64,000 bases of DNA from an uncultured Candidatus Saccharibacteria bacterium (GTDB lineage Bacteria; Patescibacteriota; Minisyncoccia; Phycocordibacterales; JABMNX01). Position 1 is the stretch's first letter; every line of letters starts with the position of its first letter. The stretch covers positions 70,351 through 134,350 of the forward strand of contig CAZNRH010000002.1 in the NCBI GenBank assembly GCA_964575755.1. The letters run 5' to 3'. The position numbers and the translations under genes are program-made. Below are positions 6,321 to 46,342 of this stretch, in pieces. The notes beneath the pieces are model-generated. The model had not been told where the DNA came from. It ran no database searches and saw nothing but the letters and a program-made list of their open reading frames with translations.

Positions 6321-6352
6321 CCCCGTCACAGTAGCTACGTGACGGGTTTTTT
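6321..6352 (+). terminator. rho-independent terminator
   Basis: Stem cccgtcac/gtgacggg followed by tttttt. Confidence 0.6.
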
Positions 6353-7187
6353 ATTTCAACTTAAAATATACCTTATTACCAAAACGTAGATCTATGTATT
6401 CTATGTCTTCTGTATTCTTTTCTCTAAATGTTTCTGAATCGAGAACGACAGTAAGGTTATCGAGCACCTCAGACGATCCTTGTTTTCTTGTGAAGATAAT
6501 CTTACTCTCACCTTCTAGATAAAGCTCCATATTTGAGACACCTACTGTGTGTAATTCGATAGGTATAACCTCTAACTTTTTAAGTGAATCAATAAGAGTG
6601 TTCATTTTATTAAATTCGTCGTTTATTTTTAAATAATACTTACCTACATAATCTGGACCTATTAAATCTCCATAAAAACGCATGAAGACATTACCCGTAA
6701 AGTTGGGTGCTTTCGAGAATACAAACCCTTCCGTATTAATGAAATAACAATCCTCTGTTAATTCACTACTTTTATCAGTACACCAAAGAGCATACGGCTT
6801 CTGCTCCTCTATTTCCATGGATAAAGTTTGAAGGTCAGTACGCACGATATCAACTGACTCAATTTGCTTAAATGTGGTTAAGATAGAAGACTCTATCTCT
6901 TCTTCTGGAAAAATTAAACTGTTTGTACGCGGAAATAATAAAAAATATTTTCCACCCTCAAGAACCTCTTCTGTAACATCTTTTATTCTTGAGTCTGAAA
7001 TAACACTACTTCCATTTATAACAATATTGTTTATCTGCAAGTATGGACGATACGATACCCACGAACCTAAACCTATTAAAAGTATAATGACGACCACGCT
7101 ACCAACAATTTTCCATAAAAAAGATCTACGCCTACGTTTAGCAAGTCTTTCTGGTCGTGCTACTTTACATCTCCTAAACCACTTCAT
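6351..7187 (-). CDS. ftsQ: cell division protein FtsQ/DivIB-like
   Basis: Basic cytoplasmic N-terminus, one TM helix, POTRA-like region (VDIVRTDLQTLSMEIEEQKPYALW). Confidence 0.7.
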   Translation of the reverse strand: MKWFRRCKVARPERLAKRRRRSFLWKIVGSVVVIILLIGLGSWVSYRPYLQINNIVINGSSVISDSRIKDVTEEVLEGGKYFLLFPRTNSLIFPEEEIESSILTTFKQIESVDIVRTDLQTLSMEIEEQKPYALWCTDKSSELTEDCYFINTEGFVFSKAPNFTGNVFMRFYGDLIGPDYVGKYYLKINDEFNKMNTLIDSLKKLEVIPIELHTVGVSNMELYLEGESKIIFTRKQGSSEVLDNLTVVLDSETFREKNTEDIEYIDLRFGNKVYFKLK

Positions 7188-7299
7188 CCCGTACGAAATA
7201 GGACACGGACTAATGTTGCCATTGTCCTAAAGTTAAATCCTCTGTTAATTATCGACTTATTTTCCATATATTATGTTTGTATCCATGATTTCGTACGGG
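7188..7299 (-). repeat. start-codon-abutting inverted-repeat element (copy a, upstream of ftsQ) with internal 27-aa micro-ORF
   Basis: Arms cccgtacgaaataggacacgga and tccatgatttcgtacggg are complementary. The element ends exactly at the ftsQ ATG. Internal ORF MENKSIINRGFNFRTMATLVRVLFRTG spans 7184-7267 on the minus strand. Its TGA overlaps the ftsQ ATG as ATGA. Confidence 0.75.
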
Positions 7300-7306
7300 A
7301 TTTATA

Positions 7307-9524: not shown

Positions 9525-9662
9525 CTATGAATCCCGTTAGAGATAAGTCCTCCAGAGGAGACTGTCGGACACTGGGACGATATATACAACAATATAAAAT
9601 ATTATTAACACATTTAATTTTAGGACAAAGGTTGTTTACATCGGTGTCCTATCTCTAACAGG
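9525..9662 (+). repeat. start-codon-abutting inverted-repeat element (copy upstream of topA, no micro-ORF)
   Basis: 5' motif ctatgaatcccgttagagataag. 3' arm ggtgtcctatctctaacagg is immediately followed by the topA ATG. Arms pair (cccgttagagata / tatctctaacagg). Confidence 0.7.
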
Positions 9663-11870
9663 ATGAAACTATTAATTGTAGAATCGCCAGCAAAAGCAAA
9701 AACTATTTCAAAATATCTTGATGATAAATACACAGTACGCGCATCTGTGGGGCATGTTCGTGATTTACCAAAAAGTAACAAAAATGCTATCGATATAGAT
9801 GCAGGTTTTGTCCCCAACTATGAAATATCAAAAGGTAAAGAAGACATCATAAATGAACTTAAAAAACTAGCTAAAAAATCTGATGAAGTGCTCCTTGCAA
9901 CTGACCCCGACCGAGAAGGTGAAGCAATCGCATGGCACTTGAAAGAAATACTAAAACTTAAAGACCCTAAACGAGTTGTGTTTAACGAAATTACAAAAGA
10001 AGCTGTGCAAGAAGCTGTTGCACAGCCAAGATTGATAGATGACAATCTGCGTAAAGCTCAAGAAGCTAGACGCATACTAGATAGACTTGTTGGTTATGAC
10101 CTTTCTGGATTGATATGGAAAAAGCTACGCTATGGACTATCTGCAGGACGCGTTCAGTCACCCGCACTTCGAATCATAATGGAGCGTGAGCGTGAGATAC
10201 GTGCGTTTATACCTGAAGATTTTTGGGTACTAACTGCCGACGTAACAACTGCAAAAAAAGTAGCTTTTCAGCTTACGTGTACTAAAGAACCAAAAACAGA
10301 AGAAGAGGCAAAAAGGATCTGTAAAGTTGGAAAGAAGGGGGCTTGGGTGATTAAGGACGTTATAGAAACGAAAGCCAAACGCTCGCCGAAACCACCATTT
10401 ATAACATCAACACTGCAACAAGTTGCGAGCACTCGGCTAGGTTTTGCGCCAAGTCGTACTATGGGTATTGCACAGAAGTTATACGAATCTGGACATATAA
10501 CATATATGCGTACTGATAGTACCAATCTAAGCAATCAAGCACTTACCCATATTGAAGAAGTTGTTAAAGATAAGTATGGAGCTAAGTTCAGTAACAAAAA
10601 TGTATTTAAAGCCAAGAGCAAAGGTGCACAAGAAGCACATGAAGCTATTCGACCTTCAAACTTCCTTAAAGAAAGTGCTGGTAATAACGAAGACCAAAAG
10701 AGTCTCTATACTTTAATTTGGGAAAGGACTGTTGCTTCTCAGATGTCAGATGCAGAAATACTGCGCACTAAAATAACTGCCAATATAATAAATGAAACAG
10801 AAAGTAATGCTATTCCAAATTTTGCTACCAATGGATCACGAGTTATGTTTGAAGGATGGCTCAAGGCAGATCCACGAGCACGCGGTGAAGATGTTGAACT
10901 TCCCAAAGTAATGAAAGATGAACCTATAACGCTTAAAGATATGGGGTCAGAAGGTAAACAAACCCAGCCACCTTTCCGTTATACAGAGGCTGGTCTTATT
11001 AAAAAACTTGAAGAACGTGGCATTGGACGCCCCTCCACATATGCATCTATCATGAGGACACTCCAAGACCGTGAATATGTAATAAAAGAAGGACGAACTC
11101 TCTTCCCCACTGACACTGGAGATGTGGTGAGCTCATTTCTTGAGAAGAATTTTGAAAAATATATCAGTGATTCGTTTACAGCAGAGATGGAAAATGAGCT
11201 TGATGAAATAGCACAAGGAGAACGCAAATATGAAAAAACATTAAAAGATTTCTATACTCCATTTAGTAAAGATGTTAAATCAAAAGAGAGTATGGACAAG
11301 ATAACAAATCTTGGCGACGCCCCAGATGAATTTGACTGTCCTAAGTGTAAAAGCAAAATGATTATCAAGCTTGGACGAGGTGGTAAGTTTATGAGTTGCG
11401 ACAAGTTTCCAGAATGTATAGGCGCTCGGACAATAGAAGGAAAGATTATAGAACCAGACAAACCAATTGGAAAACATTCCGAAACAGGAGAGGATGTATA
11501 TCTGCTCACAGGGCGTTTTGGTCCATATGTTCAAATGGGAGCAAGTCCAGCAAAAGGAGAGAAAAAAAAAGAAAAGCCACGCCGAGCGAGCGTGCCAAAA
11601 GAAAAAGATATCGACGAAGTCACAATGATAGACGCAGAGAAATATTTGAGCCTACCTCGCATACTCGGAAAGCATCCTGAGACAAACGAAGACATCACAG
11701 CAAGCATAGGACGCTTTGGACCATTTATCGTGCATGATGGAGATTTTCGCTCACTGAAAACAGATGATGTGTACGCTATAAAATTAGATCGGGCTCTTGA
11801 AATACTAGCAGAAGAAAAAAAGACTCGAGGTAAGAAAAAGGCGGTAAAAAAGAAGGCGGTAAAAAAGTAG
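9663..11870 (+). CDS. topA: DNA topoisomerase I
   Basis: TOPRIM start MKLLIVESPAKAKTI. C-terminal zinc ribbon CPKCKS...C and a lysine-rich tail. Confidence 0.95.
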   Translation: MKLLIVESPAKAKTISKYLDDKYTVRASVGHVRDLPKSNKNAIDIDAGFVPNYEISKGKEDIINELKKLAKKSDEVLLATDPDREGEAIAWHLKEILKLKDPKRVVFNEITKEAVQEAVAQPRLIDDNLRKAQEARRILDRLVGYDLSGLIWKKLRYGLSAGRVQSPALRIIMEREREIRAFIPEDFWVLTADVTTAKKVAFQLTCTKEPKTEEEAKRICKVGKKGAWVIKDVIETKAKRSPKPPFITSTLQQVASTRLGFAPSRTMGIAQKLYESGHITYMRTDSTNLSNQALTHIEEVVKDKYGAKFSNKNVFKAKSKGAQEAHEAIRPSNFLKESAGNNEDQKSLYTLIWERTVASQMSDAEILRTKITANIINETESNAIPNFATNGSRVMFEGWLKADPRARGEDVELPKVMKDEPITLKDMGSEGKQTQPPFRYTEAGLIKKLEERGIGRPSTYASIMRTLQDREYVIKEGRTLFPTDTGDVVSSFLEKNFEKYISDSFTAEMENELDEIAQGERKYEKTLKDFYTPFSKDVKSKESMDKITNLGDAPDEFDCPKCKSKMIIKLGRGGKFMSCDKFPECIGARTIEGKIIEPDKPIGKHSETGEDVYLLTGRFGPYVQMGASPAKGEKKKEKPRRASVPKEKDIDEVTMIDAEKYLSLPRILGKHPETNEDITASIGRFGPFIVHDGDFRSLKTDDVYAIKLDRALEILAEEKKTRGKKKAVKKKAVKK

Positions 11871-18773: not shown

Positions 18774-19017
18774 AATGCATTTAATGATATATGTAAAATG
18801 TGGTGGTTACAAGGTGGATGAAGTGGTTAATATTTTCAAATCCTGCCTGGCGTGACAAACAAAATCACCCCATGCTTTCACATTGGGTGATTTTGTATTA
18901 TTTATTTGGCGCAGGTTTCTAAGCTCACTGCGTTCACTAAGAACCTCCTGCCCTAGCTCGCGGTAACAATTTTTAAGGAAAAAGAAAAATCGTTACATCG
19001 CTCCGCTTCACAGAAAC

Positions 19018-19048
19018 GTAAAAAACGAGGAACCAACCTCGTTTTTTT
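19018..19048 (-). terminator. terminator downstream of tRNA-Tyr
   Basis: Stem aaaaaacgagg/cctcgtttttt. Confidence 0.6.
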
Positions 19049-19057
19049 ACATTTCTG

Positions 19058-19141
19058 TGCGCCGGGCAGGATTTGAACCTGCGTAGGGCTATGCCCGTCA
19101 GATTTACAGTCTGATGCGATTGACCACTCCGCCACCGACGC
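19058..19141 (-). tRNA. tRNA-Tyr (anticodon GUA)
   Basis: Acceptor GCGTCGG/CCGGCGC. Anticodon stem TCAGA/TCTGA with loop CTGTAAA. Long variable arm. Discriminator A. Confidence 0.8.
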
Positions 19142-24848: not shown

Positions 24849-24883
24849 TGAGTGATAAAAAGTAAGAATGTATACAGACTTAT

Positions 24884-24978
24884 GCGATTCCTCGCAAGGA
24901 ATCGTGTCCGGAGACCGATCATCCTCGCAAGGAATCGTGTCTGATATCTCTCAAGATATCATGTCCGGAGATCGGAGA
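24884..24978 (+). promoter_or_regulatory. structured leader upstream of infB with tandem hairpins and a direct repeat
   Basis: Hairpin cgattcctcgcaaggaatcg. Direct repeat tcctcgcaaggaatcgtgtc occurs twice. Hairpin tgatatctctcaagatatca. The gtgtc.tatctctcaaga segment resembles the 3' arm of the element family at topA and ftsQ. Confidence 0.35.
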
Positions 24979-24995
24979 CTAAAAAATATAATAAT

Positions 24996-26507
24996 ATGGA
25001 TAAAGAAAACAAAACTAAGAGGGCTCCAGTTATTGTGGTTATGGGACATGTTGATCATGGGAAATCAGCGCTTCTTGACTATATCCGAAAGACCAATGTA
25101 GTAGAGGGTGAAGCTGGAGGTATAACGCAACACATTTCAGCATACGAAGTTGAACATAAAGACAAAGAAGGCACAGTGCAGAAAATTACTTTCCTTGATA
25201 CCCCTGGACACGAATCATTCTCAAAGATGCGAGCACGTGGTAGCAAGGTTGCTGATATAGCAGTGTTAGTAGTTTCAGCAGAAGATGGAGTGAAGACTCA
25301 AACACTAGAAGCGTATAAAACTATTAAAGATAATGGTATTCCATTTATAATTGCTATCAATAAAATCGACAAACCAGAAGCAAATATTGAACGTACAAAG
25401 ACGAGCTTACTTGGACATGAGATTTATCTTGAGGGGGCTGGTGGCGATATACCATGGGTAGCTATATCAGCAAAAGTAGGCACGGGTGTGGATGACCTCC
25501 TCGATATGATGCTCCTTGTGTCAGACATGGCAGAGCTTACTGGGGACATAAATAAAAAAGCAGAAGGTGTTGTACTAGAGTCTCACCGTGACAACAAAAA
25601 AGGAATATCTGCCACGCTACTTATTAAAGATGGATACATAAAGAAAGGAGATTTCATTCAATCAGGAGAAAGTGTGTCACCTGTTCGAATAATGGAAGAC
25701 TTTACAGGTAAAAGCATTGCAGAGGCGCAGTTCTCTACCCCAATTAATATAATAGGGTTCAATGTCACACCAAAAGTTGGGGAATTATTTAATACTTATA
25801 ATTCTAAAAAGGAAGCTGAGAAAGTAGCTCTGGCGTATAAAGAAGAAAACAAAAAGACTGAGAAGCAATCTGCACCAGTAACAATAGCTCGCGACAGCGA
25901 AATAAAATTAATACCAATAGCGCTCCGCGCAGATGTGCTTGGGTCAATTGAAGCAATAGAACATGAAATTAATAAAATATCACACGAGCGCGTAGAGATA
26001 AAGATAATACAAAGAAACGTTGGTACAGTAACAGAAGGAGATATAAAACTAGCTCTTGGTAGCCCCGACTTATTGATAATCGCTTTTAATGTAGGTACAG
26101 ATAAAGCTGCTCTAGATCTCGCCACAAGAAACGGTATCAAAATACATTCGTTTGATATTATCTATAAGCTGGCTAAGTGGCTTGAAGAAGAAATAAAACA
26201 ACAAGCCCCTAAAATAAACACTGAGGAGACAACTGGAAGTGCTACTCTTCTAAAAATATTTAGCAAAAACAAAGATAAGCAAGTAGTAGGCGGTAAGGTA
26301 AATACAGGATCCATTAAAGTTGGTAGTGTTGTTAATATAACCAGACGCGACAACCGCATAGGCACTGGAACTGTTATTGGACTACAACAACAAAAAGCCG
26401 CAACTAAGGAAGTTGAAGAAGGAAGCGAGTTTGGAGCACAAATAGATTCACGTATTGAATTAGCTCCAAACGACACCATTGAAAGCTTTATTATCGTTAA
26501 AAAGTAA
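24996..26507 (+). CDS. infB: translation initiation factor IF-2 (short form)
   Basis: G-domain [10 protein letters not shown]...DTPGHE...NKID followed by the IF-2 C-terminal domains. Confidence 0.9.
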
Positions 26508-27125: not shown

Positions 27126-27209
27126 GCCGGGATGGTGGAATTGGTATACACGCAACACTTAAAATGTTGTGGGCGTAAGCCCATGCGGGTTCAACTCCCG
27201 CTCCCGGCA
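27126..27209 (+). tRNA. tRNA-Leu (anticodon UAA)
   Basis: Acceptor GCCGGGA/TCCCGGC. Anticodon stem CAACA/TGTTG with loop CTTAAAA. Long variable arm. Discriminator A. Confidence 0.8.
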
Positions 27210-27222
27210 CAAAGAGAAATGA

Positions 27223-27256
27223 ACCTCGTCTGAGAAGACGAGGTGATTTTCTTTTG
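27223..27256 (+). terminator. terminator after tRNA-Leu(UAA)
   Basis: Stem acctcgtct/agacgaggt followed by gattttctttt. Confidence 0.6.
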
Positions 27257-27258
27257 TA

Positions 27259-27388
27259 GCCGGGAGCGGGAGTTGAAAGACGGAAGCGGTATACAAGATG
27301 CGTAGTGAAACGGAGCAGGCTTGTCGCTGAGTCGGGGTCGAGAGTACTTAGTGCATAGCACTTAGTAACTCGTGACCAACTCCCGCTT
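27259..27388 (+). repeat. tRNA-linked AGACGGAAGC element (unit A)
   Basis: Starts with the reverse complement of the tRNA-Leu(UAA) 3' end (gccgggagcgggagttgaa). Then aagacggaagc. Core gctgagtcggggtcgaga. Ends ttagtaactcgtgacc plus a copy of the tRNA T-arm 3' strand (caactcccgct). Confidence 0.6.
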
Positions 27389-29933: not shown

Positions 29934-30350
29934 TTATCCAGTTAAAAGTCCGATAGTGTTTCTTACAATAATTGCCAATGTCCAAGAACCAAGGAATAAG
30001 GCTACCCCAATAATTGTATAGTAAAAAGTCTTCTTAGCTTCTTCAATCTTTGTTACATTACCCTGTGCTGTAACAAAAAGGAATCCAGAATACACAATAG
30101 ACAACACCGCTATTGGAAGTCCTATATTAATAACTGCCTTTAGAAGCAACTCAACAAATTTTTCAAAGCTATAGATACCGCTATTTTCTAATGGGTTTTC
30201 TAAACCAGCTGCAAGTGCATATGGTACTGTAACCATAAAAAAGAAAATAAATGTTGTTAATGTTTTTTGAATCCCATACGAAATAGGACACGGACTTATA
30301 GTATTTTTATCCACAAGTATAGATTTTATATTAATTGTCAACTTTTTCAT
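29934..30350 (-). CDS. TrbC/VirB2-like small membrane protein (start uncertain; N-terminus reads through a repeat element)
   Basis: Two TM helices (INIGLPIAVLSIVYSGFLF and IIGVALFLGSWTLAIIV). The ATG at 30350 lies in the loop of element copy b. An alternative ATG lies at 30236. Confidence 0.5.
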   Translation of the reverse strand: MKKLTINIKSILVDKNTISPCPISYGIQKTLTTFIFFFMVTVPYALAAGLENPLENSGIYSFEKFVELLLKAVINIGLPIAVLSIVYSGFLFVTAQGNVTKIEEAKKTFYYTIIGVALFLGSWTLAIIVRNTIGLLTG

Positions 30351-30393
30351 TTTTATTATAATTTTAATGTCCGTGATTTCGTACGGGACTAAT
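30272..30393 (-). repeat. inverted-repeat element (copy b) between the SBP-like gene and the pilin gene
   Basis: Arms atcccatacgaaataggacacggac and gtccgtgatttcgtacggga. An in-frame ATG in the internal loop (MKKLTINIKS...) is homologous to the micro-ORF of copies a and c. Confidence 0.7.
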
Positions 30394-30395
30394 AC

Positions 30396-31703
30396 TTATC
30401 TTAGCAAATTTTGTAACTCTTTATGGGCAGTACTTACTGACTCACTCGTCCTCAGTCTACCAGAAACAACTGACTCTATCATTAGTTTAAATATTTCATC
30501 TGTCTTGCTTACACTGGGGTCGAGCCAAGCACGAGACTGAAGCGCTGCGTCGGCAAAAATAACTTTAAATGGATCCGATGGCCTGTTGGCTAACAATGAC
30601 CTTGATACTGGAGATAGGCCTGTCTTTTCTGACATATCCTGCAAGACCGAGTCAGACGTAAGTGCAAAAGCTATCTGCATTGCTCCTGCAATATTCTTTG
30701 ATGTTCTTGGAATCGCTAAGCCTGTAATATTTCCAAAGGTAATATTATTGTTACTACTTCGAACCTGCGGAACAAGAGCGACATCGAAATTTAAGTTGGC
30801 GTTTTTTTCTCTTATAGATGAAAGCTCGCTCGCAAAACCTACGTAGTTAGAAAGTATTCCGGATACAAAGGCTTGTTTTGATTCTGGTAATGCACGGTTC
30901 CATGTATAAATGGTCTTTGTGGGGTTTGCAAAATCTGTATAAAAACGGAGAGCATTCTCAGCAGGCACCTGTCCATCACTTAATTGACGAACTAGCCCCG
31001 AAGACAAAGAACCGTTACTTCCAACTAATACTAAATCACCCCCTGCCTGCAGTATCAACATCGAGAGTAACTCTTTTGCATGTGCAATGTTTTGATACTC
31101 TCCAATTGACAAAGCGCTTTTAAATATTTCCCCACTGTCACCACGTGTTGTTAATGAACCATTAAGAGCAAACGACACTATCTCATCCCAAAACCGTGGC
31201 GGTCGAGATATTCCAGCTTGAGAATAATGATCCCTGTTCCAATAAAGAACCAACGGGTCAACAGTGAAAGGAAGGGCGGTAATACCATTCCCACTTAAAA
31301 ACAATTCTGCTTCTTGAATAAAAGCATCTTTAAACTCACGCTGTGACATAACGTCATATGAAATTGGATAAATCTTATCCCCGTGCCTTAAAATAGTGTC
31401 TTGGCTTAAGAAAAACAAATCAGGACCTCTCTGAGACGCAAGGGCTTCTACTAATTCCTCATCAAAAAAACGTACATCTTTTTCAATATATGTAACTTGG
31501 TCAAAACGGTCATCGTTAAATGAAGCCTCTCTTATGAGTGCCTCCATAACCTTGTCGTCATACGTACCCCAAATCACTACCTCGCCTACATTAGCGCCGC
31601 CACCTCCAAACCCGCCAACACCAGCAAAGAGCATCACTCCAACCACTGTAAAAAATATAAAGGCTCCAGTAACAACTATTTTAAATACGCTTAATTTATT
31701 CAT
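30396..31703 (-). CDS. membrane-anchored extracellular solute-binding-protein-like protein
   Basis: N-terminal TM/signal anchor, Gly-rich linker, then a periplasmic-binding-protein-like pattern (VVIWGTYDDKVMEALI...). Weak assignment. Confidence 0.4.
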   Translation of the reverse strand: MNKLSVFKIVVTGAFIFFTVVGVMLFAGVGGFGGGGANVGEVVIWGTYDDKVMEALIREASFNDDRFDQVTYIEKDVRFFDEELVEALASQRGPDLFFLSQDTILRHGDKIYPISYDVMSQREFKDAFIQEAELFLSGNGITALPFTVDPLVLYWNRDHYSQAGISRPPRFWDEIVSFALNGSLTTRGDSGEIFKSALSIGEYQNIAHAKELLSMLILQAGGDLVLVGSNGSLSSGLVRQLSDGQVPAENALRFYTDFANPTKTIYTWNRALPESKQAFVSGILSNYVGFASELSSIREKNANLNFDVALVPQVRSSNNNITFGNITGLAIPRTSKNIAGAMQIAFALTSDSVLQDMSEKTGLSPVSRSLLANRPSDPFKVIFADAALQSRAWLDPSVSKTDEIFKLMIESVVSGRLRTSESVSTAHKELQNLLR

Positions 31704-31823
31704 CCCGTACGAAATAGGACACGGACTTAAACAGCCCTTGTCTCTATGTTTAATATTCTATTAATTATCGACTTATTTATCATATATTGTTTCTGTGTCC
31801 GTGATTTCGTACGGGATTCATAG
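31704..31823 (-). repeat. start-codon-abutting inverted-repeat element (copy c) with an 18-aa micro-ORF
   Basis: Arms cccgtacgaaataggacacggac and gtccgtgatttcgtacggg with an outer attcatag motif. Micro-ORF MINKSIINRILNIETRAV spans 31727-31783 on the minus strand. The element ends exactly at the ATG of the 30396-31703 gene. Confidence 0.75.
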
Positions 31824-44877: not shown

Positions 44878-45027
44878 AGCGTAAGCAAGATGTGTATTTT
44901 ACATACTCTTCATTTAAGCCCGTAACAAAGCCGTCAATACCAGAACAAAACAAAAAAATGTCAACGGGTTCACTTTTTTCTTTTGTCTGTGTATGATTGT
45001 GCTACTTTATATACTTAAGGAGAATAT

Positions 45028-45148
45028 GAATCCCGTTAGAGACCGCGGTCGCGAAACAGGAAAAAATAGTTATGAGTAATAGTCGAATTTATATTTATAA
45101 AACATTAACAACACAGGCAGCGAAAACCGCGACCTGTCTCTAAACGGG
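45028..45148 (+). repeat. start-codon-abutting inverted-repeat element (copy upstream of ftsZ) with a 23-aa micro-ORF
   Basis: 5' motif atatgaatcccgttagagaccgcggtcgcg. 3' arm cgcgacctgtctctaaacggg is immediately followed by the ftsZ ATG. Micro-[26 protein letters not shown] spans 45072-45143. Its TAA stop ends 5 nt before the ftsZ ATG. Confidence 0.7.
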
Positions 45149-46342
45149 ATGAAAAAAATACAACCAGACGTTGAAGCATTTGCACGAATACGAGTAGTTG
45201 GAGTAGGAGGTTCAGGAAACAACGCTGTTAATCACATGATTAACACGAAAGTAACCGGTGTCGATTTTGTATCAATAAACACTGACGCACAAGCACTACA
45301 TGGCTCAACCGCAAAGAAGAAGATTCACATCGGTAAAAATCTTACACGAGGTCTTGGAACAGGCATGAACCCAGAAATGGGAAAGCAGGCAGCAGAAGAA
45401 ACGAAAGAAGAAATCCAAGAAGCTGTTAAAGGTTCTGACATGGTTTTCGTAACCTATGGAGCTGGTGGAGGAACTGGTACAGGAGCAGCTCCTGTGGTAG
45501 CTAAGATAGCGCGAGATTCAGGAGCACTGACCGTAGCTGTTGTTACTAAGCCTTTTTCTTTTGAAGGACAACAGAGAATGCGCTTAGCAGAACTTGGACT
45601 TGAAGAAATCAAAAAAGAAGTAGATGCGCTTATAGTTATCCCTAACGACCGACTACTTGCTGTTGTACAGCGTGAGACCTCTGTCAAAAATGCATTTGCA
45701 ATGTGTGACGACATACTAAAGCAAGCTGTTGAAGGTATTTCAGACCTTATTACCATGCCAGGAATAATTAATGTCGACTTCGCAGACGTTCGCGCTGTTA
45801 TGGACAATGCTGGTTCGGCTCTTATGGGTATCGGAACAGCTACAGGTGAGAAACGAACTGAAGATGCTGCTAAAGCAGCTATCAGCTCACCTCTTCTTGA
45901 AGTTTCAATAGCAGGAGCTAAAGGAGTATTGTTCTCAGTTGCAGGTGGTGATGACCTCTCAATGCTTGAAATTCAAGACGCAGCTAAGGTAATTACAGAA
46001 TCAATTGATCCAAACGCAAAGGTTATCTTTGGAACAGTACAAGATGACAAACTTAAGAAGAATGAAGTAAAGGTGACCGTTATCGCAACAGGATTCCCTG
46101 AAAATTCAATGCCGTCAGGAAAAAGCTCTTCCCTATTCCAGCTTCCAAAGAAGGATGCAGAAAAAACAGAAGAAAAAAAAGAAAGTAAAATTTATAATTC
46201 AGTAGCAAAGTTAACAAACGACCCTAAAAAAACAGACAAGAAAGATGATGCAAAGAAAGACGGAGATGTAAAAAAAGATGATACAGATGATGACGACTGG
46301 GGCGCAGTTCCAGCATTTTTGCGACGGTCGAAGTTAAAGTAA
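45149..46342 (+). CDS. ftsZ: cell division GTPase FtsZ
   Basis: [10 protein letters not shown] tubulin signature. Acidic linker. C-terminal AVPAFLRR peptide. Confidence 0.95.

Follow-up and report, generated by a model that had tools for sequence, protein, structure and literature searches.

In this study, we asked why a 64,000-nucleotide stretch of patescibacterial DNA (contig CAZNRH010000002.1 of assembly GCA_964575755.1, positions 70,351 to 134,350; hereafter the window, meaning that stretch at its full length) carries five similar inverted-repeat elements directly against the starts of genes, among them copy D at 31703..31816 on the minus strand. An earlier note on this DNA had left the choice between a selected RNA stem and a mobile repeat. 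Our findings make it quite likely that the five repeats are non-autonomous members, resembling MITEs (miniature inverted-repeat transposable elements), of a mobile family present across the candidate phyla radiation (CPR, Patescibacteria); this explanation, taken whole, includes mobilization by a GIY-YIG nuclease encoded in a longer form of the element and re-initiation of translation at the host gene. The relatives of the window's FtsZ and TopA are Patescibacteria of the Kaiserbacteria/Paceibacterota type, its G+C content is 37.5%, and its ftsZ segment is matched identically by a 2-kb metagenome contig.

Insertion between the A and the TG of start codons

The five copies are homologous, as the earlier note had claimed: a profile built from them recovers exactly those five with nhmmer (E = 8e-22 to 9e-35) and no other significant match, and a degenerate pattern matches the window exactly five times, with 0 matches expected from shuffles. 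In gene sense they have in common the layout T-CCCGT...stem...loop...CCT-R-T-Y-TC...ACGGG-A; all measure 114-132 nt, all face the downstream gene in the same orientation, as had also been stated, and their predicted foldings reach -30 to -39 kcal/mol (z = -3.7 to -6.9). The complementarity of the two arms within each copy, with compensating changes between copies, was confirmed as well. By Pfam, the downstream genes are topA, a pilin of the type IV secretion system (T4SS) type, a solute-binding protein, ftsZ and an unassigned 278-aa open reading frame (ORF, 6351-7187), whose label ftsQ has no Pfam support.

The mobile nature of the repeats is seen at their empty sites. The close relative GCA_964625905.1 (L260), whose FtsZ is 91% and whose TopA is 93% identical (TopA over the queried N-terminal 346 aa), keeps the gene order of the window, and the element sites at topA and at the 278-aa ORF are empty there. 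At topA, the relative reads ..TAAATATATAATCTT ATGAA ACTATTAAT.. and the window ..TAAATATATATTCCT ATGAA (element) TGAA ACTATTAAT..; the empty site in L260 is clean, with a single ATGAA (..TCTT-ATGAA-ACTATTAAT..). At the 278-aa ORF, a single ..AATAATAT ATGAG.. in the relative corresponds to ..AATAATAT AAA (element) TGAAG.. in the window. The element is likewise missing at ftsZ in GCA_964625905.1, and the ftsA-ftsZ spacer of three relatives is without it, the last ~25 nt of the leader differing there too. Overall, 61 kb of relatives' DNA yielded 0 copies, versus 5 in the 64-kb window. Because the empty sites hold a single copy, the motif tatgaat, formerly taken for a shared outer part of the element, in fact consists of the start codon of the host gene and the left one of two TGAA copies that make up a 4-bp duplication; it lies outside the element and is degenerate in two window copies (ATAAA, TTAG). 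The element sits inside a start codon, after its A and before its TG (A-TGNN, mostly A-TGAA), duplicating TGNN, and the A of the downstream ATG is the last base of the element itself. That the 3' arm (...ACGGG or ...ACAGG) stands directly before an ATG is correct for four of the five copies and does not hold for the pilin copy, where the junction reads ATT. We refer below to the host's original start codon, left of the element, as ATG1 and to the rebuilt one as ATG2.

The short form occurs at at least 120 further loci in many patescibacterial lineages, as found in a scan that took one genome per species and left the flanks and the arm complementarity unspecified in its pattern. All counts given here for short copies (n = 130, 129, 113, or 81) are among the matches listed from that scan, whose hosts include Wolfe-, Kaiser-, Nomura-, Yanofsky-, Taylor-, Lipton-, Campbell-, Harrison-, Zambryski-, and Jorgensenbacteria, Kazan, and others. 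Two matches were rejected as family members: L057, labelled Bacteroidales, is a chance match, and the viral L259 matches the short pattern by chance inside a 2231-aa ORF; long elements were not found in viral contigs. A 13-bp terminal repeat, TCCCGTTAGAGAY...RTCTCTAACGGGA, is common to the copies, perfect in 103/129 and with compensating variants. The last base is A in 126 of 130 copies, an ATG spans the junction in 114, and an ORF of at least 60 codons follows in 105. The 4-bp duplication TGNN is identical on both sides in 89/130, the duplicated sequences being TGAA (64), TGGA (23), TGAG (10), and TGCA (8); where the left side has GTG or TTG, the right side has ATG all the same. Around the insertion sites only A-TG-A-A is conserved: no extended target motif was found there, nor is a Shine-Dalgarno motif conserved.

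Start codons are adjoined by 112 of 129 copies (87%, both ends counted), versus ~0.32 expected for noncoding ATGAA sites (p = 4e-38), an expectation that is a crude estimate from the ~32% of ATGAA sites outside genes that lie at start codons. Orientation relative to the adjoined gene is 105:8 (93%, p = 1e-22). The earlier note had reasoned that copies in random orientation, including inside genes, would speak for a plain MITE; the orientation and the start-codon occupancy are instead strongly biased. The few reverse copies (L012, L024, L040, L045, L092, L096, and L121 among them) still adjoin start codons, in their case those of genes that run away from the opposite end; several resemble one another internally, and they could be reverse insertions, inversions between the arms, or a subfamily that behaves differently. 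A preference for essential genes, suggested for the window copies, is not borne out, given that 98 downstream proteins fall into 131 Pfam families and no family has over 3 members. In tandem arrays the elements share a single TGAA; such arrays were observed at L006 (three elements), L035, L049, L199, and L217. At L118:2526-2553, a 29-nt hairpin consists of just the two terminal arms, a minimal derivative resembling repetitive extragenic palindromes (REP). The family thus has the features by which MITEs are recognized, namely terminal inverted repeats, a target duplication of fixed length, presence/absence polymorphism, and copies at unrelated loci. The MITE alternative of the earlier note is right as to mobility because duplications match, empty sites are clean, insertions occur in tandem, and downstream genes are diverse.

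The full-length element and its GIY-YIG nuclease

Two loci, L084 and L045, hold 280-bp elements with the same ends as the short copies; the target and the inner stem are common to both forms too, and the longer one codes a GIY-YIG nuclease. Its domain occupies residues 1-68 of the 86 encoded by the sole ORF (Pfam E = 1e-16). In the metagenome scan this long form was found at at least 120 loci, and the flank statistics that follow come from the 83 intact copies with flanks among the matches listed. Translation of the nuclease can begin at the original ATG of the host gene and ends at the TGA of the duplicated target, in overlap with the rebuilt ATG (ATGA). ATG1 is in frame with the nuclease in 57/83 copies; a TGA directly follows the element in 73 (TGAA in 67), supplying the stop of the ORF; ATG2 is rebuilt in 76, and a gene lies downstream in 69. 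In two sampled contexts the nuclease gene overlaps both neighbours by 4 nt. The 13-bp ends are themselves within the reading frame, TCCCGTTAGAGAY encoding ..PVRD and RTCTCTAACGGGA encoding ..LSLTG: forms of 95 aa start MNPVRD, that is, the host ATG, two duplicated bases, and the left arm, and all forms end ..LSLTG, the right arm.

Homologues of the nuclease make up more than 3000 clusters at 90% identity, nearly all of 86 or 95 aa (overall range 86-95), and belong to CPR wherever a taxon is labelled; thousands of variants occur, always with the same ends. The protein is under purifying selection (0.26, 0.20, and 0.50 differences per site at codon positions 1, 2, and 3). The residues typical of a GIY-YIG active site (Y, Y, R, H, E, N) are invariant, and the nuclease looks functional. 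Its predicted structure (pLDDT 87) is a single domain that best matches UPF0213 BH0048 and the nuclease domain of Slx1, an enzyme that cuts branched DNA; the nearest solved sequences are again UPF0213 BH0048 (E = 1.4e-8) and SLX1, whereas I-TevI (E = 0.8) and UvrC are much weaker fold matches.

The consensus fold of the long form stacks P1, the 13-bp ends, on P2, a stem of ~12 bp that pairs codons of ..LRKRL.. with codons of ..RLRRF... Double substitutions affect several pairs of P2 (AU 47 / GC 35, CG 53 / UA 23, UA 52 / CG 17). In about half of the short copies (n = 65) P2 takes the form of a local hairpin ending CC beside the right arm, with 36 distinct stem sequences among those 65, while shuffles give ~4 such hairpins; in the other short copies, those of the window included, a segment beside the left arm pairs with a segment beside the right arm. 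P1 covaries as well, at position 11 (GC 75 / AT 50) and position 13 (TA 77 / CG 41), and its positions 7-8 change jointly in the TACGAAAT variant of the window. The window copies keep both ends, the P2 base, and the internal ATG, and are without the nuclease. Given that the stem is kept both in a coding gene and in noncoding derivatives, it points to recognition of a folded nucleic acid. The covariation suspected in the earlier note is confirmed, but it does not require an RNA function. Across the whole window, Rfam at gathering thresholds returned tRNAs only, and in E-value mode on two copies, up to E = 10, chance-level matches only.

Mechanism and competing explanations

How such insertions would be made and tolerated can be set out as follows. 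The nuclease would recognize the folded P1 plus P2 hairpin, probably as single-stranded DNA (ssDNA) by analogy with the Ssn nucleases, and would mobilize long and short forms alike. Ribosomes would start at ATG1 or at an internal ATG, translate through the hairpin and melt it, stop at the TAA of the right arm (-7) or at the TGA (+1), or continue in frame, and re-initiate at ATG2; the host gene would stay expressed because translation runs through the element and then restarts. Two stops are built into the right arm, cTCTAAcggg, with its TAA 7 nt before ATG2, and gggATGA, with its TGA at +1. A Shine-Dalgarno-like motif is rare, both in the window (3 of 58 genes) and at insertion sites (13 of 113). 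Among short copies, the ATG1 frame is open to the right end in 27/81 (9.0 +/- 2.5 when shuffled), some ATG-started ORF reaches that end in 62/81 (43.5 +/- 4.5), and an internal ATG lies in the 5' third in 96/129 (60 +/- 6), although shuffling destroys inherited coding sequence, which weakens the comparison. Of 130 short copies, 69 have a length divisible by three, so that ATG1 falls in the frame of the TAA. The hint of translational coupling through ATGA in the earlier note was perceptive, since the full-length element has its nuclease gene in the very frame that ends in ATGA; the coupling itself would proceed by re-initiation. The homologous micro-ORF of the same note, on the other hand, is not one conserved peptide, frames and sequences differing between copies. 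In one subgroup (L014, L038, L055, L075, L098, L106, L118, and others) the ATG1 frame does give similar peptides of 37-40 aa, MNPVRNRG...NRIGFG...ASASYF, with some third-position and conservative changes; a real small protein and shared nucleotide ancestry both fit.

Several observations weigh against the mobile family as just described. No nuclease gene was found in the 64-kb window by tblastn, so the five copies have no visible partner there, and no long element with the TACGAAAT arm variant of the window is among the matches listed. Short and long forms are similar at the ends only (over the final 23-48 nt in 31 copies and over ~17 nt at the left end), and nhmmer found no homology between their interiors; since sequence similarity is confined to the ends, the term deletion derivative relies on the ends, architecture, and target that both forms have in common and on a few intermediates, 192, 244, and 266 bp long. 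Known GIY-YIG enzymes make 2-nt cuts, and the single-strand transposition of IS200/IS605 is duplication-free; because a 4-bp duplication fits neither, the mobilizing enzyme could be another. Occupancy of start codons may stem from targeting or from survival there only. Lastly, the ATG1 frame meets an early stop in 54 of the 81 short copies with a start-type codon at that place, and in copy D the relay of ORFs stops 27 nt short of ATG2; re-initiation is for these reasons not uniformly supported.

There is a substantial chance that the element represents a new class of nuclease-driven transposon. In its boldest form, which we put forward tentatively and would not bet on at even odds, this idea makes the GIY-YIG nuclease itself the transposase of a previously unrecognized class of prokaryotic DNA transposons, at ~280 bp among the smallest autonomous mobile elements; start codons would be found by mechanism and not merely through survival, the start would be borrowed from the host, the stop taken from the duplicated target, the ribosome handed back at ATGA, and the 114-132-nt copies mobilized in trans. 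In the open-access literature, searched by arm sequence and by keyword, we found no description of start-codon targeting or insertion by such an element.

The closest published system is Ssn/NTS (Chenal et al., Nat Commun 2025, PMC11893778), and it suggests a rival explanation: that short copies are recognition sites kept by the host for an Ssn-type single-strand nuclease, like NTS/dRS3 in Neisseria, marking genes where incoming or replicating ssDNA is to be cut and so modulating natural transformation or recombination, with mobility a thing of the past. As described there, Ssn nucleases are single-domain GIY-YIG proteins of ~94 aa, flanked by hairpins, that bind hairpin repeats in ssDNA and cut one strand upstream of them, with hundreds of repeats near genes, and its authors remark that the "repeat-gene-repeat" layout is IS-like (PMC11893778). 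The CPR nuclease is likewise a single domain (~90-95 aa) without a DNA-binding domain, its gene is bounded by an inverted repeat or hairpin, many nuclease-less, oriented repeats with a conserved hairpin lie beside genes, and the window codes DprA, a transformation protein. However, the CPR arms form one 13-bp terminal inverted repeat inside the ORF instead of a separate 20-50-nt hairpin on each side, and the published SRM consensus, HGTCWYN(0-2)YYVSBRHN(0-5)WNVSBRGN(0-2)RNCYNB, which matches the NTS positive control, is present in 0/243 CPR elements among the matches listed (0/130 short, 0/113 long). The 4-bp duplication, insertion at start codons, rebuilt ATG, and stop/start overlap belong to the CPR element and were not encountered in PMC11893778, where a term search of the main text found "start codon", "Patescibacteria", and "candidate phyla" 0 times each; the host group of the CPR element is the CPR. 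With no nuclease gene in the window, start codons left unexplained as sites, the same sites empty in a close relative, and the downstream genes unrelated, the last two of which fit recent insertion better than conserved marking, we regard host-kept recognition sites as unlikely. Less probable again, to the point of being hard to credit, is the idea that the repeats are plain MITEs belonging to a classical DDE-type insertion sequence (IS) that resides elsewhere, whose transposase gene should lie between TCCCGTTAGAGA...TCTCTAACGGGA, the GIY-YIG gene being a passenger between the same ends. Terminal inverted repeats with a short fixed duplication are a DDE hallmark in IS families generally, known GIY-YIG chemistry does not readily yield a duplication of 4 bp, and short and long forms are alike at the ends only; yet ~1.8 Mb of fetched CPR DNA held no element above ~285 bp with these ends, hence no kilobase-size partner, the ends lie inside the nuclease frame, which runs to the duplicated TGA in 73/83 long copies, and the nuclease is constrained by purifying selection and comes in thousands of variants, always with these ends.

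A cis-regulatory RNA selected and recruited for a regulon, whether leader peptide or attenuator, RNA thermometer, or stem bound by RNase III or another protein, is the least credible explanation, and as an origin of the repeats it is largely refuted. The element does lie in the transcript directly ahead of the start codon and in a single orientation, its stem is stable and covarying, and short ORFs reaching its right end are enriched. Against this, target duplications and empty sites demonstrate insertion, the downstream genes spread over 131 Pfam families, no peptide is conserved across copies, Rfam gives no match even at E = 10, and the stem is also conserved inside the protein-coding gene of the long form, which points to a DNA or mobility function. 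The leader-peptide attenuator of the earlier note falls with it, there being no conserved leader peptide, no specificity for a class of genes, and no element at the same genes in relatives. Splicing, or excision at the RNA level, was rejected because no copies were found inside genes.

A comparison with other small elements shows both common traits and differences. Like bacterial MITEs and the Correia elements (CREE) of Neisseria, it is ~100-150 bp long, has terminal inverted repeats and a target duplication, and exists in many intergenic copies; as in Correia elements, it is co-transcribed with neighbouring genes and its stem can form in RNA. The ends of Correia elements, however, are 26 bp long and unrelated in sequence, their duplication is TA, and they follow no start-codon rule, whereas the CPR ends are 13 bp (TCCCGTTAGAGAY), the duplication is TGNN, the ATG is restored, orientation is 93% fixed, and the longer partner codes a GIY-YIG nuclease in place of a DDE transposase; the Correia-type assignment was dropped, since terminal sequence, duplication (4 bp, not TA), and host group all differ. 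With IS200/IS605 and the REP-associated tyrosine transposases (REP/RAYT) it has in common very small size, probable recognition of ssDNA hairpins, oriented insertion at a short target, and abundant nuclease-less hairpin derivatives. In those systems the transposases are of the HUH/Y1 kind, the hairpins are subterminal, and the target is not duplicated; identity with them was rejected, the sole ORF being a GIY-YIG gene and a 4-bp duplication being present. Free-standing GIY-YIG homing genes (T4 seg, the I-TevI family) are similarly selfish genes between host genes and sometimes translationally coupled. Homing endonucleases have a DNA-binding domain, lack terminal inverted repeats and duplication, and reach cognate alleles through the repair of double-strand breaks; in the CPR element the 86-aa catalytic domain stands alone and hundreds of unrelated genes are occupied, so this identity was rejected too. 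Rickettsia palindromic elements (RPEs) are also small, palindromic, and mobile, occur in reduced genomes, and are tolerated in translated sequence; they insert in frame inside ORFs, adding a peptide segment, unlike the CPR element, which sits at the start codon, is followed by a restart, and has a nuclease-coding parent.

Should the mobile family with nuclease and re-initiation be correct, it would represent a new style of insertion, in which a start codon is split and then repaired by the last base of the element, with the host barely affected: host initiation signals would serve the nuclease of the element before the ribosome is returned to the host gene. Such near-invisibility would explain how five copies came to lie in 64 kb of a highly reduced genome, even before ftsZ and topA. 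On the practical side, gene callers output the 95-aa MNPVRD... proteins, and starts beside elements may be mis-set. The element would be a natural system for studying re-initiation in bacteria without Shine-Dalgarno motifs, it would link Ssn single-strand nucleases to demonstrable mobility, and tools could be sought among thousands of nuclease/hairpin pairs. It may be relevant, too, to the GIY-YIG genes noted, without explanation, in non-intron insertions of CPR ribosomal RNA genes (PMC11270868).

The window copies and their surroundings

Copy D (31703..31816, minus strand, 114 nt), TCCCGTACGAAAT...ATTTCGTACGGGA, has a minimum free energy of -38.5 (z = -6.3), with ATG1 at 31821-31819 (minus strand), the left TGAA at 31820-31817, the right TGAA at 31702-31699, and the A of the downstream ATG as its last base, 31703, from which the solute-binding protein gene (30396-31703, Pfam) is read. 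Copy B (9532..9663, plus strand, 132 nt) precedes topA (9663-11870); its ATG1 lies at 9527-9529, its TGAA copies at 9528-9531 and 9664-9667, and from ATG1 onwards 43 codons can be read before the right-arm TAA closes the frame. In copy A (7187..7300, minus strand, 114 nt), before the 278-aa ORF, decay has turned the left copy of the target into TAAA (7301-7304), and ATG1 is now ATA; an internal ATG opens an ORF whose TGA stop overlaps ATG2, confirming the ATGA overlap pointed out at this gene.

Copy E (45031..45149, plus strand, 119 nt) lies before ftsZ (45149-46342), with ATG1 at 45026-45028 preceded by AAGGAG; TGAA stands at 45027-45030 and again at 45150-45153, and a pair of short ORFs that overlap leads on to the TAA located 7 nt ahead of ATG2. 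Upstream of it (window 45000-45030), a promoter-like region is identical to that of the closest relative (compared with L002, L003, and L005). The last ~25 nt before ATG1 differ from the relatives and carry the AAGGAG, even though an SD-like motif is so rare in the window; either replacement of the leader or compensation following the insertion could account for this.

Copy C (30272..30388, minus strand, 117 nt) lies between the solute-binding-protein gene and the first of four tandem T4SS-type pilin genes (PF18895, 29096-30350). It has no ATG1, its duplication is not visible (TTAG / TTCA), and its junction is the ATT already mentioned. From its internal ATG at 30350 the frame continues across the right arm and on into the pilin ORF (29934-30350), as the earlier note had seen, and the first pilin, if read from there, gains a 27-residue N-terminal extension (MKKLTINIK...) from copy C.

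A few further repeats were noticed. A degenerate relative had been proposed before infB (24849-24995; infB at 24996); two HMM searches and reading of the sequence revealed there neither the terminal repeat nor HMM similarity. What the infB leader does contain (24880-24990) is CCTCGCAAGGAATCGTGTC twice in direct orientation, along with several small hairpins; this leader has no relation to the element family and could be a structured leader or a different repeat. In L260, a 54-nt palindrome (ATCTCCATTTGGAGACCGGGTCTCCAAATGGAGAT) at 9897-9950, in the dprA-topA spacer, is absent from the window. Finally, an inverted repeat with 42-nt arms (27190-27277) adjoins the tRNA at 27126-27209, and an inverted copy of a tRNA end (18835-19077) lies 207 nt from the tRNA at 19058-19141; both may be integration scars.

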